From Nanobdellati archaeon (lineage in GTDB: Archaea > Nanobdellota > Nanobdellia > UBA10117), in contig JACOYC010000009.1 of assembly GCA_016182015.1 (NCBI GenBank), positions 6,953 through 70,952 on the forward strand: a stretch of 64,000 bases of DNA. The letters run 5' to 3'. This document shows, in pieces, positions 3,164-33,942 of this stretch (position 1 is the stretch's first letter; every line of letters starts with the position of its first letter). The position numbers and the translations under genes are program-made. A model generated the notes under the pieces. The model worked only from the letters and a program-made list of their open reading frames with translations. It did not search any database and was not told the DNA's origin.

Positions 3164-5451
3164 TTTTTGTCTTCCGGTTTCTTCTCTCCGTCCAGAAAAT
3201 CCTCGTCCTCTTCTTCCAACCAGTCCACGAATCGCTGCCATGTGCCTTTCTTCTGGGCCTGGCTGCTGGCTAGCTGGCTTGGCTGGGCTGGCTTTGGCTG
3301 CTCTTTTGCTTGGACAATTCGCGCCGGCATTGCAGGCCTTCTTGGCCAAGAACGCACACCGGCCAGCAAAACTGCCAAAACCATAACTGCTACAACACCA
3401 ATCTGCCAGTTTTTGTAACCGTAAGTTCTGCCACGAATTAAATCTCTGAGCCAGTCGCGGGCCTGCCTCAGCGGCCGTTTAACCGCTTCCGTATACGGGC
3501 CTGCCAGCTCGTTGGCTTTATTCCTTGCGCGCGCATCCAATGTACCAACAGCGCCTGCTGCACCGCTTATTTTATCGGACAGTTGCAAGCTTGGTTTGCT
3601 TATCTGAATTTTTGGAAAATGCAATTTCACTCCGCTACTGGAGTTTGCCTGCACGCTGACTGGTCTCGCGCCGTGAGTCAGGGAAACCGCCCTAGTCCAT
3701 AAACTAGATACAAAACCCTTGATTGCCCGTGTCTGTGCGGAAAAGTTTGGAAGCGCACGTTCCCCTTGAATTGCTCCCTGGCTGGCTGGCTTTTTTGGCG
3801 CTTCCGGCTCTTTAACCTCTGCAACATTAATATCTATGGTGGATGAGCTATACGTAGCGCCGCCCTGCAGCCTGGCTGAAAATGTAAGTTTGTAGTCTTG
3901 TTGCGGCGCATCTGCGGGGAGCGCGATATATGCGTACGCAGTGCCTGCCTCGGAGCCGCCCAGCGTAAGCGTGCTGGGATTTAGTTTTGCGTAAGCTGCA
4001 CCAGAGCCGGAGACTTCCAGATTATACACTGCAGCTTCGCGGCCAAGGTTTTCCACAACAATTGGGATCAATGCGCCCTGCCCGCGGGCAACACTGACGC
4101 GCTGTTCCGCTGGAGTTGTCCGAACGCCAAAACAAGAGTCGCGTGACGGAATTTTCAGCACAAGCTCGTCGGATGCACTTGTAATGCCTGCCTGCTCTGC
4201 CGATACTTTAACAACATATCCTCCAGATGTAACGTCCCTTGGGCTGGCAACTAAATTTACTACCGCGCTTTCGCCGGTTTTTAATTTAACCGCTTGCTTG
4301 TCAAGGGAAACAAAATCTGCGCCAGATGCAGAAAGCACAAAGTCTCCGTCGTACTTGCCCAAATTAGAAACCTGGACAGCATATGCCTTTTCAGTTCCGG
4401 AACAAACTGTATCCTGCTCTGCGGAAATGCGAACGTCAGTTGCATAGCATTTCAAAACATTTGCAACTATTTCTCGGGAAACTTTCTGCGCTCCCTTCTC
4501 AGATGAAGCTTCAACATTAATTCTGAAGTCGCCAGTTGTTCCAAGCCTCGGAAATAATATTAAGTTAGCAGACGCAGGCCTGCCGGCCGCAGCCTGCACG
4601 CTCGTAGATTCAAGGCTTGCCCAGCTCGGGCCGGAAACTTTTAGCTCGTAGCTGTTGCCAACAGTCCCCCTGTTCTGCAAATTTATTGGTATGCTTGCCT
4701 GCGCATTCTCGCAAAAGCTCAAGTAGTTTTTATCCGGGACAAAGTCAAAGTCATAACATGCCTCTGAGTTCAAAACGAGCGGGGCGCTTGTAACGGCGCT
4801 CGAGTCTTTTGAAATAGCTGAAACAGACAAATCAAAAGTTCCTACTGTTAAGCATGAAGTCAGGACTGAAACATCAAAATCTTTTTTTTCGTTTGGCGCC
4901 AGCCGCACCTCGGAAAGGCTTGGCGTTGCATACTGTGCGCCGGTGCCGCTAAGCTTGATTACAAACGTTTCAGAATATCTGCCAGTGTTCTCAAGCGAAA
5001 CTAGGTATTTTCCTGGCGCGCATGCACATGTGTTTAACGTGCCGGCCTGCGCGGTTAAAGCGCCTGCATGGCAATCATCAACAACTACGCTGTAACCTGC
5101 AGTTGTTTTGCCGGAAAGACCTGAATTCACAATCGCATCGAGAGAGTACATGCCTGGCTGTGCGCTCAGCGATGGCGTAACATAAATATAAACGGAATTC
5201 GACTGCCCGGGTTTCAGAACAAAACCAGATGGCGCAGCGACCGCCCATTTTGCTGCATCGCCGGCCAGCGAGATTGTGTATGAGTCGGAGTTAGCCAAAT
5301 TGTGGTTTGTAACGCCAAGCACAAATAAAATTGTGTCAGACGCACAGGCAGTGCCACTAGTATCGGTATTACTTAATGCGCCCGCAGACGCAAGTACTAG
5401 CAACAAAGCTGTTACAATCCACAAAACCCTAACTTGGCCATTGCTTACCAT
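3160..5451 (-). CDS. large surface protein: signal peptide, repeated beta-sandwich domains, C-terminal TM anchor with acidic cytoplasmic tail
   Basis: 763 aa. The N-terminus is LWIVTALLLVLASAGALS. Repeated segments of about 100 aa look CARDB/NEW3-like by eye. The TM segment is WQIGVVAVMVLAVLLAGV, followed by the tail ...WLEEEDEDFLDGEKKPEDKN. A GGAGG sits 10 nt upstream of the ATG. Confidence 0.6.
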   Translation of the reverse strand: MVSNGQVRVLWIVTALLLVLASAGALSNTDTSGTACASDTILFVLGVTNHNLANSDSYTISLAGDAAKWAVAAPSGFVLKPGQSNSVYIYVTPSLSAQPGMYSLDAIVNSGLSGKTTAGYSVVVDDCHAGALTAQAGTLNTCACAPGKYLVSLENTGRYSETFVIKLSGTGAQYATPSLSEVRLAPNEKKDFDVSVLTSCLTVGTFDLSVSAISKDSSAVTSAPLVLNSEACYDFDFVPDKNYLSFCENAQASIPINLQNRGTVGNSYELKVSGPSWASLESTSVQAAAGRPASANLILFPRLGTTGDFRINVEASSEKGAQKVSREIVANVLKCYATDVRISAEQDTVCSGTEKAYAVQVSNLGKYDGDFVLSASGADFVSLDKQAVKLKTGESAVVNLVASPRDVTSGGYVVKVSAEQAGITSASDELVLKIPSRDSCFGVRTTPAEQRVSVARGQGALIPIVVENLGREAAVYNLEVSGSGAAYAKLNPSTLTLGGSEAGTAYAYIALPADAPQQDYKLTFSARLQGGATYSSSTIDINVAEVKEPEAPKKPASQGAIQGERALPNFSAQTRAIKGFVSSLWTRAVSLTHGARPVSVQANSSSGVKLHFPKIQISKPSLQLSDKISGAAGAVGTLDARARNKANELAGPYTEAVKRPLRQARDWLRDLIRGRTYGYKNWQIGVVAVMVLAVLLAGVRSWPRRPAMPARIVQAKEQPKPAQPSQLASSQAQKKGTWQRFVDWLEEEDEDFLDGEKKPEDKN

Positions 5452-7571: not shown

Positions 7572-8834
7572 TTACTGCCCCCTCTTCTTGGAAGCCTGAG
7601 CGGTTTGCGTAGTCCTCATCAAGATTACTACCGCGACAATTATGACAACAAGCCCGCCGAACACTGCAAACAACACATTGTCGTCTAACTGCGGAGTTCT
7701 TGATTGAGTTTCTACATTTCCCGGCGCGGTAGAAACTGCGACCGGGGTGACTGTTACTGCTGGAAGTGTTTCAGCTTCGGCCCTTGCTGCGCCAACATTT
7801 ATAACTTGGCTGCCTGTTGCCGTGTCTTTTCCGTCATTGAATGTTACTGTGAAAAACACAACATGCCTGCCAGGCCTCGCGTCTTTTGAAACAGCAAATG
7901 GTATGTATTGTACTGTCTCTTCGCTCTGGCCAAGCTTGAAAACCGGGCTGAATTCCTGCACGCCCAAGTCGTCAGACTGAACCTTCACGCGGACAGACTC
8001 ATCTTTCTTTCCGATGTTTGACAGGGCGACTGCAACCTGTGATTGCTCGCCTGGCCTTACTGAATCAGAAGTGAACTGCGCTGATGTCAGCGTAACTTCG
8101 TGGCCTGCCCTCTCCACTTCAAGCACTTCAGACCTCTGGCCTGCCTGCGCGAACTGGTGAGAATCTTCATCCTGCCACTCGAACTTTACATTAACATCGT
8201 ATTTCTTTTCCTTTGCATCTATCGGGACAACAAAAGTTGCCGTAGCATCTTCAGTATCTTTATTATTTAGTCTGCCAAAGTCAAGCTCCTGCTCAAGGTC
8301 TTCGCCACTGTCAATACCAGCTATTGAAACTGTTGCTACCAAATCGAATGCATCATGTCCCCAGCTGTTCTTGACAGAGATTGCAACATCTACTGCGCTT
8401 GTTGGCTTTGCTGTATCAGCTGACAAGTCAAGTGATTTCAGTACTACTGTCTGGCCTGCTGGCGGGGTTGTTGTTCCGTCTGTTGGTGTTCCGCCATCGG
8501 CTGGAGGAGGCGGTGCTGTTGATGTCAAAACATAATATGCTGTCCAGTCGCTTGACAAACGAACTAAGGGAATGGGTTTTGTATCATAACCTGCTTTTGT
8601 TACGGTAATTTGATATGAGCCGTCCGGCAGGAAGCAGCTCTTAGAAGCTGCATTCACGCCCTGGCACACGACAGAAGAAGTTGCAGCGTCAGCAACAACT
8701 ATACTGTCTGGCACTGGCTGGCTGCCGCTCGGGGCAATATCCAGTACGTGTATTTCAGTTGCAAGTGTTCCGATTGGTGCGCCTAAAAGCGCTAGCATAA
8801 ACGTAAGCGCAACCAATATCTTTGTCATTTTCAT
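7572..8834 (-). CDS. surface protein: signal peptide, Pro/Thr-rich linker, beta-sandwich domains, C-terminal TM anchor
   Basis: The ORF track start is 8885. I prefer the ATG at 8834 (MKMTKILVALTFMLALLGAP...), which directly follows the stop of the upstream gene and a GGAGG. PT linker: APPPPADGGTPTDGTTTPPAG. C-terminal anchor: VLFAVFGGLVVIIVAVVILM. Confidence 0.55.
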   Translation of the reverse strand: MKMTKILVALTFMLALLGAPIGTLATEIHVLDIAPSGSQPVPDSIVVADAATSSVVCQGVNAASKSCFLPDGSYQITVTKAGYDTKPIPLVRLSSDWTAYYVLTSTAPPPPADGGTPTDGTTTPPAGQTVVLKSLDLSADTAKPTSAVDVAISVKNSWGHDAFDLVATVSIAGIDSGEDLEQELDFGRLNNKDTEDATATFVVPIDAKEKKYDVNVKFEWQDEDSHQFAQAGQRSEVLEVERAGHEVTLTSAQFTSDSVRPGEQSQVAVALSNIGKKDESVRVKVQSDDLGVQEFSPVFKLGQSEETVQYIPFAVSKDARPGRHVVFFTVTFNDGKDTATGSQVINVGAARAEAETLPAVTVTPVAVSTAPGNVETQSRTPQLDDNVLFAVFGGLVVIIVAVVILMRTTQTAQASKKRGQ

Positions 8835-8835
8835 T

Positions 8836-10932
8836 TTATTCATTCCTCCCCAAAATATCTGAGAGAGCGCTAAACTCGCGGTCATTTATCACGAAGCCCT
8901 TATCTGCCCGTACAAACTGGCCGTCAACCATCCATCCTCTTACTAGATAAGATGTGTTGCCAGTCGTGTTGTAAACGCGCACAGTCCAGTCTGTCTCGGC
9001 GTTTGCAAAATCAATTATGTAATCAACAGTCGAATTGCTTAATGTCCTGTTTGCACTGTATTTTTCATTTGCTATGTCGCGCAATGCCGAAGTGTTTGTT
9101 CCATTGTCAAACTTTACTGATTGCCACGGGTTTGACTCGTAGTTTGGCAGCAGACGCGCCTGGACTAAGCTGTCAATGCTGCGCTGTGCCTGCTCCCATG
9201 CACCCAGCTCGCGGCTGGCCTGCGCATTGTCGACCAGACCAACAAAGTAAGAAGCGTTCCTTTCCGTCAGATATAATATTTCATTTCTTGCCTGCACCGC
9301 ATCAGAAAATCCCTGATTGTATGCTGTCCTGTCAGAAGCATTGTTCCACTCCCATACCTTGCCAACCAAATCATCCAGGCTTGCCGGCGAGTCAAGGCCA
9401 AGTCTGCTGGCAAAGTCTCTGAAGCCCTGCAGGTATTTTGCTGAAATCAGGCCATCAACCTGCTGGCCAAGGTATGCTCTGTTTGCTTTCTGGTTTTCAG
9501 GGACAGCTACGCCATGCCCTTCTAAATAATCTACTAAGGCATCTGCCGGCAAGAGTGCTTCAAGCTGGCTTGCTGTCAAGCCTGTAACTGCAATATCATT
9601 TGCCCTGCCTAGCTCCTGCAGCTCCTGTAGTTTGTAAGTTGAAGCATTGCCTTGTTCGGAATCCCACTGCTGCAAAATCCCGGTTTTGTACGATAAGTTT
9701 ACCAAATCAGACGTGCTTCTGCTGTCAAGTGCTGCCCGCGAACCAACACCCAGTGCATTAAGATAAGCGCTGCGCGTGTTCCACAACGCGTCTTTGAATC
9801 CTGTCAGCGAGTCAGCCAGCAGGACAGAGTCATGGCCGAGCTGGTAGTCAACCTGCACTAAGTAGTTTACAACTTCGCGCTGCTTCTGTTCATTTGTTAA
9901 ATTAGCATTATTTCTTATTGCTGAAATGTTTGTTGATATGCCTGCAAGATCTGCGCCTTTTGCTACGAGGCTTGCCTTCATTAAATCAACCGCGCTCCAG
10001 CCGCCCTGCTGGAATGTATCGTTTCCGGCTATCCTGCCTGCGCTCATGTTAAATATTTCAGACGGCGTGTGGCCGAATACTTCTTCGAGCGTGAAATGAT
10101 ACGGCGCGCCCTGCGCAAACGCCAGAACATTTACATAATCTGCAAAATCCTGCGGCGTTCCGATGTTTAATTTGCCGGATACCCTTGCGTAAGAACCATC
10201 AACTCTTCCGTTATCGAAAGCATCATTAATTTTAGCAACCTGTGACGCATTCAATTGTCCAGATTTTCCATCAGCCATAAATGCGCCGCTTGCCTTTCCA
10301 TCGGCTACGTGTTCCAAAATACTTAGCGCGGAAACATTTCCAATTCCTGCTGCCTGGCCCGCTGCCCTGGCAGCATCGCCATGCAGTTCAATTAATCCTA
10401 ACTGGCCTGGCAGGACAGAAACCCTTGCAGGATCCCTGTGGTATAATTTTCCAAGTACCTGCTGCGCTTTTTCGGCTGGCACAAACTGCCCGCCCAAAAC
10501 AAAACTATGATTGCCAGAAACATTAACTTCATACTGGCCCGCAGAAACATTCACTCCTAATTTTTGAAGCTCTTTTGCAGTTTCATTTCCAACCGTAACT
10601 TTAATTGGATGTTCCGCGTGCAACACGACCTGCTCCAAATCTTTATCTGTTTTTTTCGGGAAGAGCGCGCCTGACATGCCTGCAAGGACAAGGCTTGCCG
10701 CAGGTAAGACTGTACCCAATGTGTAAGCAGCGGCCTTAATCTGCCTTGCGGCCCGGGCCGCAGCACCGCTTGCCGCAATTGCTGCGCGGTTGGCTGCGAC
10801 TGCGCCAACTACTGCGCCAACCAAGCCGGAACCAACTGAGCGTAAGCCAGGCCCTCCTAAAAACTGTGTGCCTAAACTATAACCAGTTACAAATCCGGAC
10901 ACTGCACCACCAGCAGCTGCTTGTCTTCCCAT
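8836..10932 (-). CDS. membrane-anchored protein with Gly-rich N-terminal TM region and a large, probably extracellular, sequon-rich domain
   Basis: 698 aa. The N-terminal ~90 aa are a Gly/Ala zipper (GGAVSGFVTGYSLG...GLVGAVVGAVAANRAAIAASGAA). The rest carries many N-x-S/T sequons (NETA, NVSA, NVSG, NHSF, NMSA, NISA, NLTN, NASD...). No family recognised. Confidence 0.5.
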   Translation of the reverse strand: MGRQAAAGGAVSGFVTGYSLGTQFLGGPGLRSVGSGLVGAVVGAVAANRAAIAASGAAARAARQIKAAAYTLGTVLPAASLVLAGMSGALFPKKTDKDLEQVVLHAEHPIKVTVGNETAKELQKLGVNVSAGQYEVNVSGNHSFVLGGQFVPAEKAQQVLGKLYHRDPARVSVLPGQLGLIELHGDAARAAGQAAGIGNVSALSILEHVADGKASGAFMADGKSGQLNASQVAKINDAFDNGRVDGSYARVSGKLNIGTPQDFADYVNVLAFAQGAPYHFTLEEVFGHTPSEIFNMSAGRIAGNDTFQQGGWSAVDLMKASLVAKGADLAGISTNISAIRNNANLTNEQKQREVVNYLVQVDYQLGHDSVLLADSLTGFKDALWNTRSAYLNALGVGSRAALDSRSTSDLVNLSYKTGILQQWDSEQGNASTYKLQELQELGRANDIAVTGLTASQLEALLPADALVDYLEGHGVAVPENQKANRAYLGQQVDGLISAKYLQGFRDFASRLGLDSPASLDDLVGKVWEWNNASDRTAYNQGFSDAVQARNEILYLTERNASYFVGLVDNAQASRELGAWEQAQRSIDSLVQARLLPNYESNPWQSVKFDNGTNTSALRDIANEKYSANRTLSNSTVDYIIDFANAETDWTVRVYNTTGNTSYLVRGWMVDGQFVRADKGFVINDREFSALSDILGRNE

Positions 10933-14810: not shown

Positions 14811-14924
14811 TTAATTTCACCAATTAGTGTATACTCCAACAAACGAAAGAGTTTTAAAACTTTCGGCATGCGGCGCCACAAGACAAAGCGAAAGATTTTA
14901 GTAATTATCATTGCAAATAAAACT

Positions 14925-15680
14925 ATGCCAAACATGCACGCAGACCGCGGCCAAAGCCTTGCAGGCAGGGCAATCCTCTGCGAGCGGCATGGGGATTTCC
15001 AGCTGGCCAGAACATTGTACTTGGATGCGGCCAGCGCGTACGCGCGCGCAACAAAATCCGCTGGCTCAAAGGAACTGCAAACAAGCTATCAAAGGCTGAC
15101 AGACATTTACCTTGGCAAGGCAAGACAGCTTCGCGGCAGGCAGAGCAACCAGATAACCCTGCATGACAGCGATAACTTTGGCATAATACTGAGCGAAAAA
15201 AGCTCGCCAAACCCATTCAGGCTGACGTCAGAAATGCAATCAATAGCTGACCGGTGCATCGCCGGCAAAGGCAAAACCGACCTCGAAGGCCGGGCAAATG
15301 CAATTTTTAACTGGCTAAATGATAATATCAAATACGGCGGCAAGAAGCGCGGCAGAGTAGGCTACAGACGGGCCGACGAAGTTATCAAAACCGGCGAAGG
15401 CGTGTGCGGCGAGGATGCATACCCATACATAGTCATGCTGCGCTATGCTGGCCTTGAGGCGCGTTTTATGCTTGTTTACACAGACTGTTATGGTGCGGAT
15501 GTTTTTCATGCCTGCGCGCGCGTTTTAATGCCAAGGGAATTTTCATCGGACGTTGCGTACCATATGTATGATGTTGGGGCTGCTGCCGGCAGCGACCACC
15601 AAAGAATTAAAGTTCTTCCGGACGAAGAGGTTCTTCAAAACGAAGATGCTGTAAAAGTCTTCAGAAGCTGGCGCGGCTAA
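14925..15680 (+). CDS. MIT-like domain fused to transglutaminase-like cysteine protease
   Basis: The ORF track start is 14793. I prefer the ATG at 14925 (MPNMHADRG...), outside the divergent neighbour. The N-terminus GDFQLARTLYLDAASAYARATKS...LTDIYLGKARQLRG resembles the N-domains of the two AAA ATPases. The core GEGVCGEDAYPYIVMLRYAGLEARF ... FHACARV ... YHMYDVG fits the Cys-His-Asp transglutaminase fold. Confidence 0.6.
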   Translation: MPNMHADRGQSLAGRAILCERHGDFQLARTLYLDAASAYARATKSAGSKELQTSYQRLTDIYLGKARQLRGRQSNQITLHDSDNFGIILSEKSSPNPFRLTSEMQSIADRCIAGKGKTDLEGRANAIFNWLNDNIKYGGKKRGRVGYRRADEVIKTGEGVCGEDAYPYIVMLRYAGLEARFMLVYTDCYGADVFHACARVLMPREFSSDVAYHMYDVGAAAGSDHQRIKVLPDEEVLQNEDAVKVFRSWRG

Positions 15681-22283: not shown

Positions 22284-23846
22284 TCATACACCTAATACGC
22301 ATTTTGAAGTATAACAATTTTCGACGCCAGAAGCATCTGTGCCGGAGATTTGCAGTCTCCTCCTCGCTGACAGGTTATACATCAAGTAACCGGCAGGGAG
22401 TTTTGATGGATTTGTAAACACGTGCATGGCCTCTGCTACTGCCAGCCCGCCAACTACTAAGTTTGGCATTATGACACTTGGGTCAGCAGAGTAAGCACAC
22501 CCCTCTCTAGCTGCACGATTCGTTTTGCGGCGCTCTTCTGCCGCCTTTCTCTCGTCACTAATCATTTCTTTTAAATCAGTCCACGGACCCCATCGCTGAT
22601 AACGAATGCACTTTGTCCTGCCGGGATACGCAAAATATATTTCTCCCCCCCTAACGCCGGCAGATGCATCTATTATTGGCACATTCAATCCCGACATTAA
22701 AACTAAATTATTAATGTGAATCCTTGCTTCTACGCTGTCCACGCCAGATATTATTAAATCGGGCGAAATTTCTTTCAGCCATTTAGTAAAATTTTCGTCG
22801 ATGTAACCTATAACAAAACCAACATCGCGTCCAGTTATCTGACTTAATCTATTTGAAAGTGCTGACGCTTTCTTCTTGCCAATTGCGCCGTATGCCAATA
22901 TTTGTCTGTTTAAATTTGTGGGTTCAAAATTATCGCCGTCCGCTATTATAACTCTTGCACCGGTTAAACAAGACCACAATGATGTGTAATTGCCAATTGC
23001 GCCGCCGCCAATTATTAAAATGGTTTTGTTATAAAACAGACTATTTGCAGATTGCTTTGGCCCATCTAAACTAACACGTTTGCTGGATAGAGAATCATAA
23101 TCGATTGCTAACACCGGCCGTCCATCTGTTTCCATTGGCATAATTATGCTGCGCAATTCGCCGATGGCTATGCCTGCCGCTATGCCGCTGGTGGCATTGC
23201 CCTGCGGCAAATCTTCATAAATGCCTGGCATTATATCTGCTTCGTTTACATGTACCCATGCACTGTTAATAAGAGCTCTAATACGCTCTTCTAAAATCAT
23301 GGCTGGCCCGCTTTTCGCCTGCCGCCCGAATATTCTTACCGAACATTTAGTGGCGCTTGACATTGTGCTTATAAACGGAACATTTTGTTTTCTGCACCAT
23401 TCATAAGAATAAAATTTAGAAGTATAATTGTTTGTTGCATCTATAACTGTTGTTGGCATTCCAAAATTACTTGCAGCGTCTCTTCCAAGCGGCGCATCAA
23501 TGCCGCTAACCTGTATGTTCGGGTTAATCTGACGTAGCGATGCAGTCAACGCTTTAATTTTACTCTCGCCCTTGCGGGCTTCAAAAAGCAAAAATCCTTC
23601 GGATGCACTATCCAGATTGCGGCCGCCGTTCACATTTCCAGAACCAATTATCCTTACATGACCTACGCCGAGTGCCGCGCAGCCTGCCGAAACGCAGTTC
23701 GAAAGCTGGCCAGAACCCACCACAACAACTTTCGCGCTGTCAATCTTTCCTTGCATCCAGCCCTCAATCCGCCTCTGTCTGTCGTATACATCTGCTACTT
23801 CGTGCTCATCTTGTTCCTCTTGTCTTATTGGTATAACGCCCATCAT
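22284..23846 (-). CDS. E1-like (ThiF/MoeB family) enzyme with two tandem Rossmann-type domains
   Basis: 520 aa. The N-terminal domain is degenerate (VVVVGSGQLSNCVSAGCAALGVGHVRIIG). The second domain is canonical (ILIIGGGAIGNYTS...VIIADGDNFEPTNLNRQIL...ISGVDSVEARIHINN...). Confidence 0.7.
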   Translation of the reverse strand: MMGVIPIRQEEQDEHEVADVYDRQRRIEGWMQGKIDSAKVVVVGSGQLSNCVSAGCAALGVGHVRIIGSGNVNGGRNLDSASEGFLLFEARKGESKIKALTASLRQINPNIQVSGIDAPLGRDAASNFGMPTTVIDATNNYTSKFYSYEWCRKQNVPFISTMSSATKCSVRIFGRQAKSGPAMILEERIRALINSAWVHVNEADIMPGIYEDLPQGNATSGIAAGIAIGELRSIIMPMETDGRPVLAIDYDSLSSKRVSLDGPKQSANSLFYNKTILIIGGGAIGNYTSLWSCLTGARVIIADGDNFEPTNLNRQILAYGAIGKKKASALSNRLSQITGRDVGFVIGYIDENFTKWLKEISPDLIISGVDSVEARIHINNLVLMSGLNVPIIDASAGVRGGEIYFAYPGRTKCIRYQRWGPWTDLKEMISDERKAAEERRKTNRAAREGCAYSADPSVIMPNLVVGGLAVAEAMHVFTNPSKLPAGYLMYNLSARRRLQISGTDASGVENCYTSKCVLGV

Positions 23847-23861
23847 TTATGCACCACTATA

Positions 23862-24854
23862 TCATATATCTTTAATATCTAAATGATAACGCCCATCATC
23901 ACCCATTTTACCTGATTTGGGCGTTCCATCGTACGCGACTATAGCTTTAGCTTTGGCATCCCGTACTGCCTTAATCTCGGTCTGCGCAGCTCGTTGTAAG
24001 CCACTAACATTTTCACGTATTATTCTAATTAAATCATCCTCGGTAAAGGAAATGTCATTTTTTACGTGTGCTTGCTCAAATTGTATAATGTTATTTTCCA
24101 CCGCGCTTGTATCAATTTCAAATGTCGGCTTGCGCGGCGCGTAAACTATTTTTGCATGATAGTTACCCTTAAGATCAAGAACCAAACTCAAAGCAAACCC
24201 AAACTCCCTTAGCCTATCATATAAAAGATCAAATTCTGGCAATCTGTCTTCCAGGCCAGCTGCATCAAGTCTACAGCCGGGCAACCATATTTTAATTTCA
24301 CGCTTGCCGGGCGTTTCAGATATATTTAGAAGAACACCTTGCTCTGAATTTTCAGCTTGTATTTTAACCGGCAAGCTAAGCAAACGAATATCATCATGCG
24401 CATACAAAAAATTATGCGCAGCAATTTGCGGAAAAACTATTAAATTAAGATTAGTATCATCAGTATCTGAATGCTCGCAGCTAAAGTATGGATGGGTATG
24501 CCATGCACCCATTATTCTGTATGATTCTTTATGCACTTTAACGCCAGCTGCAAAATCATCGGCAGAACGTATGAAATTTTTTCCAGCTACCTGCCTCGTC
24601 AAACAAACATCGTGTATTGTAAAATCATCAACATCTTTTGAACCTAATAAAAGCCCGCCAACTTCTGATCCTTCGCCCAACTCCTCTTTTGTTATTTTAT
24701 GCGCAAGCTCGCCCAGCCGGTGCGCCTTTTCCCATGCTTTCTGCGTCATGACAAAGGTCTGCGGAATGCAAATCGGGTCCTGACGCTCGGTGCCGCGAAA
24801 CTTGCGATTAAGTTGCGCTTCAAAAGCCCTCTGCGACTTATTTTTTTCTGCCAT
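23862..24854 (-). CDS. JAB/MPN+ (JAMM) metallopeptidase with unassigned C-terminal domain
   Basis: 330 aa. The conserved Glu lies in SEVGGLLLGS, and the full JAMM motif is GAWHTHPYFSCEHSDTDD (HxH-x7-S-xx-D). Confidence 0.75.
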   Translation of the reverse strand: MAEKNKSQRAFEAQLNRKFRGTERQDPICIPQTFVMTQKAWEKAHRLGELAHKITKEELGEGSEVGGLLLGSKDVDDFTIHDVCLTRQVAGKNFIRSADDFAAGVKVHKESYRIMGAWHTHPYFSCEHSDTDDTNLNLIVFPQIAAHNFLYAHDDIRLLSLPVKIQAENSEQGVLLNISETPGKREIKIWLPGCRLDAAGLEDRLPEFDLLYDRLREFGFALSLVLDLKGNYHAKIVYAPRKPTFEIDTSAVENNIIQFEQAHVKNDISFTEDDLIRIIRENVSGLQRAAQTEIKAVRDAKAKAIVAYDGTPKSGKMGDDGRYHLDIKDI

Positions 24855-30055: not shown

Positions 30056-31345
30056 TTATTCGCTCGGCAATTCCCCGCCCGAGGACTTGCCTTCTATTTT
30101 AACCGGCGGCCTGGCCATGTCGCTTTTGTATCTTTCAATCATGTCAAGCAAATCCTTAAATTCATCTCTTTCGCCGCTTCTTTCTATCTGCTGTTCCGCG
30201 AGCGTGAACCACGGGCCAAGCGTTGATGGCTTTTGCGAAATTGCCTGCTGGAAATCCGCGAGCGTTACCTGCCTTGCCTGCCCGCCCGAGCTCAGCGCCT
30301 CTCTGAATGGAATATCTGCAGCTAATTTCACAACTTCAGCAATATCTGCCGCAGAATACCACTCTGTCATGCCTGCAAGCGCAATATAATTTACTGAAGT
30401 TTCAACTGGCCGCGAGCTGCACTCTTTCTCAAAAATTGCTGTGCGCATTTCCAGGTCTGGCGGCGAAACCAAAACGTGCTTGCTAAACCTTCCGCTTCTT
30501 CTTAGCGCAGGGGCGATCTCCCATGGCTTGTTTGTAGAAGCTAAAATCAGGGATTTTTCCGGCCGTTCCTGCAGGCCATCCATCTGGGCAAGCAGTGTGT
30601 TGACTGCCTTGACTCTTTTTTTGTTGGCCAGCGAGTCAAACTCATCAAAATACATAATCGACGGTGAATTTTCCCTCGCAAATTCAAATGCTGTCACTAT
30701 GTTGCGCTCTGTCTCGCCCTCGCCGCTTTTCAATAAATTGTACGGCATGACAAACAGAAATGTTGCATTGCCCTCGCCTGCTGCTGCCTTTGCAACAAAA
30801 GTCTTTCCGCAGCCTGGCGGGCCGTAGAGCAGGACGGCTTCTGAAGTCTGCTTTCCGTAAGCCTGATAAAGTTCCGGGCGCGTGAATGGATAAACCAAAA
30901 CCTCATTTATGATTTGCTTAACTACTGGCATGCCAACAACATCATCAAGCTTGACATTTGGCCTTTCAATTAAAAGGAAATCTGGAACATCTTCTTTCTT
31001 TTCATCTATTGTTGGTTTTTCCGGCGCGATTTTCTTTGGGTCCGGCGGCGGAACTGGCTTTGAAGGCGCAACCGGAATTGCTGGCACTGGCTGGGGCGGC
31101 GGTGGAATTACACTTTTTCCAACACCGGGCGCATACCTTTTTGCTATTTCGAGGCATTGCTGGCCTCGCTTGAGATGATCCCTGCTCTCACGATTCTGCT
31201 GAATCCTTGATGCCTGAACATAAAGGTCTGCAGCTTCCAGGTAGCATCTGCGGGCTTCAGAAAAATCCCGCGAACGTTCGTGCTTCATGGCCGATGTATA
31301 CAAACCGTCCGCCCTTCCTACTAGTTCTTCAAGTTTCTGTGACAT
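30056..31345 (-). CDS. MIT-AAA+ ATPase, Vps4/CdvC-like, paralog with degenerate pore loop
   Basis: 429 aa. The N-terminal three-helix segment is FSEARRCYLEAADLYVQASRI...CLEIAKRY, followed by a Pro-rich linker. Walker A is LLYGPPGCGKT and Walker B is IMYFDEFDSL. The SRH is TNKPWEIAPALRRSGRFSK. The pore-loop position reads LLKSGEGETE and lacks an aromatic residue. Confidence 0.75.
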   Translation of the reverse strand: MSQKLEELVGRADGLYTSAMKHERSRDFSEARRCYLEAADLYVQASRIQQNRESRDHLKRGQQCLEIAKRYAPGVGKSVIPPPPQPVPAIPVAPSKPVPPPDPKKIAPEKPTIDEKKEDVPDFLLIERPNVKLDDVVGMPVVKQIINEVLVYPFTRPELYQAYGKQTSEAVLLYGPPGCGKTFVAKAAAGEGNATFLFVMPYNLLKSGEGETERNIVTAFEFARENSPSIMYFDEFDSLANKKRVKAVNTLLAQMDGLQERPEKSLILASTNKPWEIAPALRRSGRFSKHVLVSPPDLEMRTAIFEKECSSRPVETSVNYIALAGMTEWYSAADIAEVVKLAADIPFREALSSGGQARQVTLADFQQAISQKPSTLGPWFTLAEQQIERSGERDEFKDLLDMIERYKSDMARPPVKIEGKSSGGELPSE

Positions 31346-31346
31346 T

Positions 31347-32579
31347 TTAGTTTTTTGGCAAATATCTTCTTATTAGATTTACTAAATCCGGATACTCTGA
31401 TGCTTCGCCGCTCCTTTCAATTTCGTTTTTTGCCTTAACAAGCCAAGGCACTAATGATTTTTTTGTCTGCGAAAGAGCTGTTTGAAAATCTCTAATAACT
31501 ACCGGCCTTTCTGACTTGCCTTCCAAAGACACTTCTTTTGCGATAATTTGCTTTGCACTTTTAGCGATATCAACGATATCCGCACTGGTGTAGCCTTCGG
31601 TATTCTGCGCCAGCCAGTCGTAATCTGCAGGATGAAGACTTACAAGTTCTGCCGTTGTATTTAACTGAAAAATTTTCTTTCTGGCGGGAGCATCTGGCAA
31701 GGGAACAAACACAGTTCTGTCAAGCCTGCCAGGCCTTCGGACTGCGGGATCAACTGCCCATGGCCTGTTTGTAGTTGCCATCCAAAATACCGGCTTCGCT
31801 GCATCTTTGCTTGAAAAGCCATCCATGCTGGACAGTATTTGATTCACGAGCCTTGCTGTATGTGATGCGTCTGCTGAGTCTCTGGAAACACCAAGCGCGT
31901 CAATCTCATCTAAGAATATTATGCTCGGCGCGTTTTTTATTGCGTCTTCAGTCATTCTTGAAAAATGCTGCTCCGACTCACCGACATATTTACTCAAAAT
32001 ATCGCTTATCTTTACGTTATAAAAATTTGCCTTGCACTGGCCTGCTGCTGCCCTGCCGATAAATGTTTTTCCGCAGCCTGGCGGGCCGTAAAGCAAAATG
32101 CCGCCGCCGGGTTTCAAGCCCAGCCGTTGGTAAAGCTGCGGCGACATCATCGGCTGTATTATACTAAGGCGTATCTCTTCTTTGACATCATCAAGGCCAG
32201 CCACCTGTTCAAAAGTCATGTCTGACTTCTCGGGCTTGATTTCAAATGTTTCTTCCAGAGAACTAGAATCGCCTCCACCACCCTGTCTGACTTGAATGCG
32301 CGGTGGTGGCTGCGGGGCGAGGGCTCTGCCTTTTTCCACGTACAACCTTGCTAAATTTTCCCAGCTTTTTCTGTCGGCTTCTGAGCTGGTTAGCCTTGCA
32401 GCATTAGCATACTCTTCTGCAGCTCTTAGATAAAGTTGCCGCGAACGTTCAAAGCCATATTGTGCGCGGCTAGTGTCAGCTGGCAAGAGAGACTTAGCCT
32501 CCTCCTCGAGTCTGCGTGCTTCATTAGAGTAGCCAAGCCCTCTGGCTGCTGTAACCCTGGGTTCATTGCCAGCTGACAT
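31347..32579 (-). CDS. MIT-AAA+ ATPase, Vps4/CdvC-like, paralog with canonical pore loop
   Basis: 410 aa. The N-terminus is FERSRQLYLRAAEEYANAARL...LARLYVEKGRAL. Walker A is LLYGPPGCGKT and Walker B is IIFLDEIDAL. The pore loop is SKYVGESE. The SRH is TNRPWAVDPAVRRPGRLDR. There is a 1-nt gap to the paralog downstream. Confidence 0.75.
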   Translation of the reverse strand: MSAGNEPRVTAARGLGYSNEARRLEEEAKSLLPADTSRAQYGFERSRQLYLRAAEEYANAARLTSSEADRKSWENLARLYVEKGRALAPQPPPRIQVRQGGGGDSSSLEETFEIKPEKSDMTFEQVAGLDDVKEEIRLSIIQPMMSPQLYQRLGLKPGGGILLYGPPGCGKTFIGRAAAGQCKANFYNVKISDILSKYVGESEQHFSRMTEDAIKNAPSIIFLDEIDALGVSRDSADASHTARLVNQILSSMDGFSSKDAAKPVFWMATTNRPWAVDPAVRRPGRLDRTVFVPLPDAPARKKIFQLNTTAELVSLHPADYDWLAQNTEGYTSADIVDIAKSAKQIIAKEVSLEGKSERPVVIRDFQTALSQTKKSLVPWLVKAKNEIERSGEASEYPDLVNLIRRYLPKN

Positions 32580-32588
32580 AGTTTGTAT

Positions 32589-33197
32589 TTACCTAGCACC
32601 TTGATTGCCTTCGTCCCTTTGCCTCTCTTTCGCAATCTCCTGTTCCACAGAAGTTACGCCCACAGTTTCCTGTGCGATTTCTGCTGAGGCCTGTGCCTTT
32701 AATCTTGCAACAAGGTCTTCTGTTGGCTCAGACTGGCCAATGTTTGAGAGGCCTTCAAGTGCAACCTCTACCTGCTGGCCACTGGTCTCTAAATCTCTCA
32801 GTGCTTGCTCTGCATCACCAAGCAGCGCATCTATGTTTCCTGTTTTGGCTTTTAGTTTTCCTGATACTTTTACTACACCTTTCATCGTGCCGAGCAAACC
32901 AACATATTGTTCGGCAAGGTCTACTAAACCAACAACATTTTGAGAATATTGTCTTATGTTGCCAGCTGCAAGTTCCATTCTGCCTGCACGGTCATACATA
33001 TTGGCGTGCATTGCTTCGGCCTTTTCACCAGCATTTGTTCTAACTGCTTCCTTAAATGCCTCATACGCTTTTTGTTTACTTCGCTTTGCTCCCAAAGCTG
33101 ACTTGTCGGCCTCTCGCTGCGCCCTGACCAGAGTTTGCTTCAACTGGTATGGCGTCTCGCTTCTAAATAAACCCTTTAACGTTTCTCCTAATGTCAT
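32589..33197 (-). CDS. ESCRT-III (Snf7/CHMP/CdvB)-like protein
   Basis: 202 aa and all-helical. The N-terminus ETLKGLFRSETPYQLKQTLVRAQREADKSALGAKRSKQKAYEAFKEAVRTNAGEKAEAM follows the CHMP pattern. The first half is basic and the C-terminus is acidic, with a TEDLVARLKAQ helix. It lies 9 nt upstream of the AAA gene. Confidence 0.6.
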   Translation of the reverse strand: MTLGETLKGLFRSETPYQLKQTLVRAQREADKSALGAKRSKQKAYEAFKEAVRTNAGEKAEAMHANMYDRAGRMELAAGNIRQYSQNVVGLVDLAEQYVGLLGTMKGVVKVSGKLKAKTGNIDALLGDAEQALRDLETSGQQVEVALEGLSNIGQSEPTEDLVARLKAQASAEIAQETVGVTSVEQEIAKERQRDEGNQGAR

Positions 33198-33207
33198 TTT
33201 TTCACCC

Positions 33208-33942
33208 CTAAATTTTTTCTACCTCTCTTTTCCCTTTTTGGGATTGAGCATCAACGTCCGGTGTGCTTGCCCTAGCAACTACCAGAAGTTCAGGCTGCCT
33301 GGCCGGTTGTGCTGGCTGCCTTTGCGGCTGGCCTGACAGCTCTCTTTTCAGCTGAGCATACAGCGCTGCATCCTCCGGCGTTGTTTCCAGTTGTGCGCCT
33401 AGCGCAGACTCGCTTGATTCGGCTATTCTCTCCAAGTCACTATTCACACGATCACTCTCTTCACCAAGCCGCTGTGCTGTTGCAGCGATTGCTTCAGACT
33501 GATAGCCTAGCTTTTCGCCCATTACTGTAAAAAGTTCTGAAACTTCTGCAACGTCCTGCAACCACGTTCCGTTCTTAACTGCAGTTATTGCATCTATTAC
33601 CTTTGAAGCGAGCAATGAAGCATTATCCGCGCGCTGGCGCGCATATCTGTGTGCCTTGACAAAAGACTGCGCTTGTATTTTATCACCCTTGCCTTCCCAC
33701 ACCGCAGCGCGTTGCCAAGCAGCCTCAGCTTCTGTAACACTTTTTTCTCTCAAGTTAAGCTGGTGCTGGTACTGCATATTAAGCCTCGTAACTAATTCCT
33801 GATCCGACATCCTCTGATACTCTGCAATCCTTTGCTGTGAGCCCGGCCGAAACTGTCCCGTATTGGGATTAATACCAATATGATCGCGGTTATTTCTGTA
33901 CCACCAATCTGCCAGCCTGTCAAGCATTCCTCTTTGTCCCAT
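33208..33942 (-). CDS. divergent ESCRT-III/PspA-superfamily-like helical protein
   Basis: 244 aa and predominantly helical, with the same basic-then-acidic polarity. The C-terminal helix is PEDAALYAQLKRELSG. It is adjacent to the 202-aa ESCRT-III-like gene (10-nt gap). Confidence 0.4.
   Translation of the reverse strand: MGQRGMLDRLADWWYRNNRDHIGINPNTGQFRPGSQQRIAEYQRMSDQELVTRLNMQYQHQLNLREKSVTEAEAAWQRAAVWEGKGDKIQAQSFVKAHRYARQRADNASLLASKVIDAITAVKNGTWLQDVAEVSELFTVMGEKLGYQSEAIAATAQRLGEESDRVNSDLERIAESSESALGAQLETTPEDAALYAQLKRELSGQPQRQPAQPARQPELLVVARASTPDVDAQSQKGKREVEKI

Follow-up and report, generated by a model that had tools for sequence, protein, structure and literature searches.

The recruitment of proteases and deubiquitinases to ESCRT-III through MIT domains is generally described as a matter of eukaryotic cell biology, and outside eukaryotes we know of no MIT-domain enzymes except the Vps4/CdvC ATPases. 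Here we describe a gene (P0001) located on the plus strand at positions 14925..15680 of a 64,000-nucleotide stretch of the archaeal contig JACOYC010000009.1 (the whole stretch analyzed is called the window hereafter). The host assembly is a 0.76-Mb (761-kb) DPANN genome, Woesearchaeota-like and placed in the Nanobdellati, and the gene encodes a 251-amino acid protein that joins an MIT-like domain to a transglutaminase-fold cysteine enzyme (TGase). In carrying an N-terminal MIT domain and a peptidase domain in a single chain, this protein resembles the eukaryotic peptidases calpain-7, USP8/UBPY and AMSH; the resemblance extends to the locus, which contains an ESCRT-III homolog, Vps4-like ATPases and ubiquitin-like tagging genes, and the MIT domain of calpain-7 in its complex with IST1 (8uc6) is among the structural matches of the archaeal domain. 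The archaeal protein differs from the eukaryotic MIT peptidases in its catalytic fold, which is transglutaminase-like rather than that of a calpain, USP or JAMM enzyme, in having a single MIT domain and in its DPANN host; its binding to MIT-interacting motifs (MIMs) and its isopeptidase activity are predicted.

The protein can also be compared with other described systems. The MIT domains of Vps4/CdvC (Sulfolobus solfataricus 2v6y/2w2u, human VPS4A/B) have the same three-helix bundle, with an end-to-end alignment to that of VPS4B, but the domain studied here precedes a protease, not an AAA ATPase, and scores below the Pfam threshold. The prokaryotic transglutaminase-like cysteine proteases (PF01841/PF04473; 3isr, 3kd4, LapG, PeiP/PeiW, PNGase) share the fold and the Cys-His-Asp triad, whereas the present family has in addition the invariant residues C197, D187 and H225, an N-terminal extension bearing an NPF motif, and a linkage to E1 and JAB genes; none of the solved relatives has an MIT domain. 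The family can also be compared with the bacterial BilABCD operons, since both the window and several DPANN genomes place it beside genes for a tandem-ThiF E1 and a JAB peptidase; to our knowledge, Bil operons lack a transglutaminase-fold component as well as any link to MIT or ESCRT. A 2025 review reports that ESCRT-III is not found in the DPANN superphylum (PMC7619361), and the main survey of ESCRT diversity names neither DPANN nor transglutaminase (PMC10936438). Our literature search found no paper containing both "MIT domain" and "transglutaminase-like", and no description of the MIT-TGase architecture.

Sequence profiles and structural modeling confirmed that residues 4-69 (14934..15131, plus strand) correspond to an MIT-type three-helix bundle, which we call the type A N-domain. 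The AlphaFold model places its helices at residues 4-21, 25-45 and 49-68, with predicted local distance difference test (pLDDT) values of 92-97, and nearly all the matches retrieved with this domain by Foldseek from the PDB were MIT domains, with target-normalized template modeling (TM) scores of 0.74-0.87 and root mean square deviations of 0.9-2.5 Å. These included VPS4A/B, yeast Vps4, the Sulfolobus Vps4-like proteins (2v6y, 2w2u), MITD1, NRBF2 and calpain-7 with IST1, while TPR proteins appeared much further down the list and only with low probability. Comparison of a profile made from 5 N-domains with the PDB sequences also placed the MIT domains of VPS4B and VPS4A on top, aligned from end to end, with the helix-3 pattern YLxxAxxL retained in the alignment to VPS4B and residue L63 placed opposite L64 of VPS4A. 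The Pfam MIT model (PF04212) aligned residues 7-70 of the TGase protein to profile positions 2-65 of 66 (E 0.046, 14.3 bits) and matched all 5 orthologs, with a best E-value of 1.9e-6; when the same model was scanned against the whole genome in six frames, it hit only 2 places, the N-domain of the TGase and the N-terminus of a 429-amino acid AAA ATPase of the same locus. A reading of the N-domain as a generic TPR was ruled out by the Foldseek ranking together with the score controls against TPR and coiled-coil proteins given below.

The closest relatives of this N-domain within the genome are the N-domains of the 2 Vps4-like AAA ATPases encoded in the locus. These are proteins of 429 amino acids (30056..31345, minus strand; Pfam AAA 1e-30, MIT 0.001; N-domain at ~31184-31324) and 410 amino acids (31347..32579, minus strand; Pfam AAA 2e-39; N-domain at ~32313-32456), both with a type A MIT-like N-domain. 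Smith-Waterman comparison of the TGase N-domain with the two AAA N-domains gave scores of 67 and 77 against shuffled means of ~26 (z 8.9 and 10.4), values that none of 2000 shuffles reached, and the TPR and coiled-coil proteins encoded in the locus, compared in segments of 80 amino acids, scored 39 at best. Searched against the whole 761-kb genome, the N-domain profile hit exactly three places: the TGase gene (E 4e-44), the 410-amino acid ATPase (E 3.2e-8) and the 429-amino acid ATPase (E 1.9e-7). The same three-way result, the TGase plus two AAA ATPases, was obtained in a congener (G329). The first-pass annotation of the window had aligned the N-terminal ~70 residues by eye with both AAA N-domains and had called them a third MIT-like domain; since shuffling and profile searches tie the three domains together, both the alignment and the label are correct.

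The remainder of the protein is predicted to be an intact enzyme of the transglutaminase fold. Transglut_core (PF01841) matched the C-terminal domain (residues 101-251; 15225..15677, plus strand) with an E-value of 8.7e-14 and 52.2 bits, against a cut-off of 23. A model built from a shallow alignment was unusable in this region (pLDDT 31-60) and was redone with 100 sequences, giving an AlphaFold model with a pLDDT of 92.7 and a predicted TM score of 0.77. The top Foldseek match of this deep-alignment model was 3isr, a putative transglutaminase-like cysteine protease (E 2.5e-6), followed by 3kd4 and, further down, by TglA, PNGase, a bacterial transglutaminase, LapG, PeiP and TG2, as expected of a papain-like/transglutaminase core fold. 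The predicted catalytic residues are Cys161 (GEGVCGE; 15405..15407) and His195 (HAC; 15507..15509), both present in 154 of 154 representatives, and Asp209 (SSDVAY, equivalent to VDPAY in the family; 15549..15551), present in 150; in the 100-sequence alignment none of the three varies. The first-pass annotation had proposed a Cys-His-Asp transglutaminase core, and its fold, cysteine and histidine stand, while its aspartate has to be moved: D216 was considered as the third member of the triad and discarded, being retained in only 117 of the 154 representatives. With D209 in that role, the triad is essentially invariant in homologs (at least 150 of 154).

Beyond the triad, C197 (15513-15515), D187 (15483-15485) and H225 (15597-15599) are invariant or nearly so. 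C197 is the invariant cysteine of the family located two residues past the catalytic histidine, in HAC, and these three residues may form a metal site or a second nucleophile. The linker between the two domains (residues 70-100; 15132..15224, plus strand) carries the family-wide NPF motif, with P97 in 143 and F98 in 124 of the 154 representatives. The same genome encodes a second, unrelated transglutaminase-core protein (G000:C12:11272-11595, L016; Pfam E 2e-28) in a 552-amino acid frame, which belongs to a generic large type that many other DPANN genomes also encode.

When 1.84 billion representative proteins were searched with a profile, 716 relatives were retrieved at E<=1e-3, 280 of them at E<=1e-10. 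Nearly all of the 716 align only at profile positions 80-242, and their N-termini vary, comprising transmembrane, coiled-coil and large unknown regions; the catalytic-domain family occurs in many DPANN genomes. In other DPANN genomes we examined the neighborhoods of 14 members lacking the MIT domain, taking as much as 10 kb of flanking sequence per side. A tandem-ThiF E1 homolog was found on the same strand 2-7 kb away in 4 of these 14 loci (L043, L049, L051 and L056), with weak JAB matches adjoining the E1 in both loci checked. That so many of the 14 loci should have this E1 nearby by chance is very unlikely, given at most one such E1 per ~1-Mb genome; this is an estimate for a 20-kb interval in a 1-Mb genome and not a computed statistic. 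An E1 is also near the MIT-type TGase in 4 of the 5 contigs that carry one, the remaining contig (L040) being too short to tell. The E1-linked members are spread over the family tree, and therefore the E1 linkage looks older than the MIT fusion. From these gene neighborhoods, the catalytic family is primarily tied to E1/JAB ubiquitin-like tagging operons, a point absent from the first-pass annotation, and this tie shifts the likely substrate toward ubiquitin-like conjugates and away from the ESCRT-III polymer.

Some of these neighborhoods show additional features. In L043 the gene order is E1, a JAB-containing 847-amino acid protein, TGase, a 307-amino acid protein and a second TGase (G230:C8, 8441-17181), the two TGase paralogs thus flanking a protein that looks VWA-like by eye and has no Pfam match. 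By eye, the 847-amino acid protein and a neighboring one of 598 amino acids appear to have LysM-like ends as well as transmembrane segments, a hint that this operon is linked with the envelope. L050 encodes an 823-amino acid TGase protein whose start is overlapped by an AAA gene, and L051 also contains an AAA gene.

In the window, the tagging genes and the ESCRT-like module form a single array on the minus strand. In order of transcription, it encodes proteins of 381, 244 and 202 amino acids, the two MIT-AAA ATPases, a 452-amino acid protein, a 589-amino acid TPR protein, proteins of 155 and 477 amino acids, the JAB peptidase, the tandem-ThiF E1, a 1495-amino acid TPR protein and a 711-amino acid protein, the gene of the latter having the last 3' end of the array, which abuts the 3' end of the TGase gene. 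The ubiquitin-like tagging cassette (22284..24854, minus strand) comprises the E1-like protein of 520 amino acids (Pfam ThiF 4.7e-40) and the JAB peptidase of 330 amino acids (Prok-JAB 7e-7). The 244-amino acid protein (33208..33942, minus strand), a candidate docking partner of the N-domain, is by its sequence an ESCRT-III homolog: its sole PDB match with phmmer was the Lokiarchaeal Vps20/32/60-like protein 9fn1_U (E 1.3e-5, residues 49-198). Its neighbor, the helical protein of 202 amino acids (32589..33197, minus strand), is a possible second ESCRT-III-like subunit. A Pfam scan of the 202- and 244-amino acid proteins found nothing. By eye, their C-terminal ends (...EDLVARLKAQ... and ...DAALYAQLKRE..., respectively) contain an Lxx[R/K/Q]LK core resembling MIM1 (DLVARLK and ALYAQLK), and this core, a weak motif match, can also be seen in the 188-amino acid protein of the related genome G001 (QLDEKLK) and in the 181-amino acid protein of the L020 locus (QLEDKLK). 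Small helical proteins are encoded beside the AAA genes of both variants (L018:7653-8219; L020:1810-2145 and 3593-4138) and have in common the C-terminal motif AAEMW..KK.QL[DE][DE]KLKE, which could be the ligand of the second type of N-domain described next.

Comparison of the N-domains across the family indicated that they have been exchanged with those of AAA ATPases. The catalytic domains of all members bearing an N-domain (P0001-P0007) form one clade in the family tree (SH-like support 98), and yet this clade contains two types of N-domain. Type A is carried by the TGases of the window and of G001 and by the two AAA ATPases of the window. Type B is present in the TGase of L020 (L020:4128-4880), where it shares 44% identity with the N-domains of the L020 ATPase AAA465 and the G001 ATPase AAA474 (L020:2191-3588 and L018 (G001:C29) 8251-9675, respectively). 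The similarity of the TGase domain to these two ATPase domains is clear (Smith-Waterman z 24-26), and by score the type B domains are unrelated to type A; comparison of their profile with the PDB did not recognize them as MIT domains, and hhalign of type B against type A gave a probability of 11%, with no recognizable relation. The presence of two types of N-domain within one catalytic clade means that exchange with the N-domain of an AAA ATPase took place more than once; on this sequence evidence, AAA+ ATPases have repeatedly supplied the TGase catalytic domain with their N-terminal adaptor. In 2 of 3 cases, the acquired adaptor is that of an ATPase encoded beside the TGase, for which the simplest explanation would be selection for recognition of a common partner by protease and ATPase. 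The MIT-TGase architecture probably arose independently of the eukaryotic MIT peptidases, by copying of the AAA N-domain. In another member of the family, P0070 (L019:299-1120), a CDC48_N domain (E 1.2e-7) replaces the MIT domain; its gene is preceded by a small CDC48_N-like open reading frame and followed by a VWA-domain gene.

Orthologs of the MIT-type TGase are rare: 4 clusters were found among 5.8 billion proteins, plus P0006 and P0007 among the representatives, and scanning genome and metagenome collections for patterns yielded just 2 additional loci and 1 additional locus. We compared five variant contigs, namely the window itself (100%), L039, L040, L001/L007 with contig C29 of G001, and L020. 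The position of the TGase gene within a super-locus of ubiquitin-like, AAA and ESCRT-like genes is kept in 4 of the 5, L040 being too short to tell. In L039 (TGase 83% identical) the gene order is that of the window, and in L040 (67%) the TGase gene is convergent with a 753-amino acid gene and TPR genes, the contig ending before any E1 or AAA gene. In L001/L007 and the rest of C29 (52%) the order, with protein sizes in amino acids, is 459 (381-like), 188, AAA, AAA, 186, 1109, 151, 535, 316, E1, 1134, 159 and the convergent TGase. In L020 (47%) it is 458 (381-like), 111, AAA465, 181, TGase, AAA387, 137, 943, 140, 484, 298 and ThiF, so that the TGase gene sits between two AAA genes, in the same direction, and overlaps the upstream 181-amino acid gene by 11 nt.

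To survey the distribution, we used the 39 genomes of the order together with an even sample of 300 genomes from the phylum, all of which are listed as the same class. In this survey the full-length MIT-TGase occurred only in 3 genomes of the genus of the window, and the lead gene of the ESCRT-like module occurred in the same 3 genomes plus one other, G307; 300 other genomes of the phylum had neither gene. An 8-kb contig of G307 has two AAA genes followed by an unrelated 248-amino acid gene; in full (L038, G307:C14, 1379-6516), it encodes a 423-amino acid (381-like) protein, a 299-amino acid protein, the MIT-like ATPase AAA432, an ATPase without N-domain (AAA311) and the 248-amino acid protein, which stands where the TGase might be expected, has no Pfam match and by eye may have a PD-(D/E)xK-like motif. 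Alignment of window positions 11007-35092 with L007/L018 (G001:C29) revealed a sharp identity break, the genes to the left of ~11.8 kb being 71-89% identical. Within the cassette the identities are 38% for a 527-amino acid gene, 52% for the TGase, 30-38% for the AAA ATPases and 21% for the E1, figures suggesting that between the window and G001 a divergent version has taken the place of the entire cassette.

The TGase gene starts at ATG 14925 and ends with TAA 15678-15680. As had been noted in the first pass, it converges on the 711-amino acid gene with a 4-nt overlap of the two 3' ends (15677..15680, both strands), the stop codon of that gene lying on the minus strand at 15677-15679, and all the peptides quoted then are found in the 251-amino acid translation. 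An identical overlap is present in L039, and in the other variants the spacing is 0 to 2 nt. A longer frame of 295 amino acids, starting at TTG 14793, was rejected because it enters the divergent 457-amino acid gene and because the 4 closest orthologs begin no more than 2 residues from M1. As read from the sequence, the TGase gene and the 457-amino acid gene have in common a divergent intergenic region of 114 nt (14811..14924). This spacer contains a TATA-like element, TTTTAGTAA, at 14896-14904, ~25 nt upstream of the ATG, and its position suggests a leaderless transcript for the TGase gene.

Altogether, these data would fit a cytosolic two-domain enzyme whose C-terminal domain is a transglutaminase-fold cysteine enzyme with the predicted triad Cys161-His195-Asp209, and whose catalytic domain would be a recurrent accessory of the tandem-ThiF E1/JAB ubiquitin-like tagging operons of DPANN archaea. 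Its most likely chemistry would be peptide or isopeptide hydrolysis, that is, the trimming, removal or cleavage of tagged proteins. In this lineage the enzyme would have gained an MIT-type docking domain homologous to the N-domains of the two Vps4-like ATPases of the locus, a homology from which it follows that the enzyme would be taken to whatever those ATPases bind. The most probable target would be the C-terminal helices of the ESCRT-III-like proteins encoded there, with their MIM1-like core (Lxx[R/K/Q]LK), and at such filaments the substrate of the enzyme might be the polymer or tagged cargo, in the way that the MIT-bearing AMSH, USP8 and calpain-7 act on eukaryotic ESCRT-III. We give about an even chance to this explanation, a cysteine (iso)peptidase of ubiquitin-like tagging that an AAA-type docking domain aims at the partners of Vps4-like ATPases. 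The first-pass annotation had proposed that the enzyme is recruited to ESCRT-III-like polymers of the locus, and the part of that proposal which holds is the link with the ESCRT-like/AAA module, supported by the exclusive sharing of the N-domain, the kept super-locus, the N-domain swap and the 244-amino acid ESCRT-III homolog; what has changed is the likely substrate, which moves toward ubiquitin-like conjugates and away from the ESCRT-III polymer.

Several observations weigh against this explanation. The Pfam MIT score of the 251-amino acid protein (14.3 bits) is under the 30-bit gathering threshold, and the E-values of the profile against the PDB MIT domains are marginal (0.02-0.14). The structural neighbors of the C-terminal domain include true cross-linking transglutaminases and amidases besides proteases. 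The TGase gene lies on the strand opposite to the array, which excludes co-transcription in the window, and the G001 TGase has a type A N-domain while both AAA ATPases of G001 bear other N-domains, so the TGase and the ATPases of one locus do not always have matching N-domains. Sequence comparison detected ESCRT-III homology for the 244-amino acid protein only: the 202-amino acid protein, the 188-amino acid protein of G001 and the 299-amino acid protein of G307 had no ESCRT-III match among the PDB sequences. What connects the enzyme to ESCRT-III and Vps4 is genomic linkage, consisting of that homolog, the two ATPases that share its N-domain and the position of the L020 TGase within an AAA operon.

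Three other explanations can be set against the docked (iso)peptidase. The fold and triad of the enzyme are common to true transglutaminases found among the Foldseek matches (TG2, 4xz7), its acyl-enzyme chemistry permits transfer to amines, and its gene adjoins those of long coiled-coil proteins of 457 and 711 amino acids, all of which would suit a cross-linking enzyme that the MIT-like domain brings to ESCRT-III-like filaments or to coiled-coil/TPR scaffolds, to form Gln-Lys isopeptide bonds there or to attach tags by transamidation in the manner of a ligase. Most prokaryotic members of the transglutaminase-like superfamily are nevertheless regarded as hydrolases, and the nearest structural neighbors of the domain are the putative cysteine proteases 3isr and 3kd4, after which come the hydrolases PNGase, LapG and PeiP; with no transferase-specific feature found, we consider cross-linking decidedly unlikely. 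More improbable still, to the point that we give it very little credit, is that the N-terminal helices play no part in docking and are just a structural cap or generic helical repeat, the enzyme acting on surface or secreted proteins encoded to its left. The low Pfam score could be read in this way, as could the left flank, which codes for CARDB/S-layer-like proteins, and the promoter region that the TGase gene has in common with the divergent 457-amino acid gene. But the fold matches are MIT-specific and the TPR and coiled-coil controls negative, the N-domain is related to the AAA N-domains alone in the whole genome, the L020 TGase gene lies inside an AAA operon far from surface-protein genes, and the protein begins directly with the MIT-like helices, no signal peptide or transmembrane segment being evident by eye (no prediction program was run).

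The exchange of the cassette between close relatives, with 71-89% identity in the left flank and 21-52% inside, raises a different interpretation, in which the TGase would be an effector or accessory of a fast-evolving conflict cassette, antiviral or directed at host interaction, that combines Bil-like tagging with AAA unfoldases, and the N-domain would couple the protease to an ATPase machine or adaptor without ESCRT-III membrane remodeling. Bacterial Bil systems are antiviral, and the patchy distribution of the MIT-TGase in one genus, the fusion or adjacency of family members to other AAA-type modules (CDC48_N, overlapping AAA genes) and to VWA proteins, and the G307 version, with a different 248-amino acid gene after the AAA pair, would all be expected of such a cassette. 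On the other hand, a true ESCRT-III homolog of 244 amino acids adjoins the MIT-AAA ATPases, so the ESCRT analogy is not empty, and no phage or defense-island markers turned up around the locus, although no search for them was made. We regard this possibility as unlikely; it overlaps with the docked (iso)peptidase more than it excludes it.

Returning to the docked (iso)peptidase, its most far-reaching form would be a complete pathway in this genus, and hence beyond eukaryotes and Asgard archaea, to tag, sort and untag proteins, with a Bil-like tag, ESCRT-III-like filaments and Vps4-like ATPases at the membrane, and the MIT-TGase as a deconjugase recruited to the filaments, an independently evolved analog of AMSH and USP8 made by copying the docking domain of the ATPase onto a peptidase of the tagging system. 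We consider it unlikely that all of these elements hold together. At a more general level, the locus joins ubiquitin-like tagging to ESCRT-III and Vps4-like genes in DPANN archaea, and the MIT-TGase system would provide easy material for work in vitro, a small soluble protein and short peptides. It points to an enzyme that would do in a prokaryote what ESCRT-III-recruited proteases and deubiquitinases do in eukaryotes, following the same logic with a different catalytic fold, and the repeated copying of AAA N-domains onto one protease suggests a general rule by which a shared adaptor domain would aim a protease and an unfoldase at one partner.

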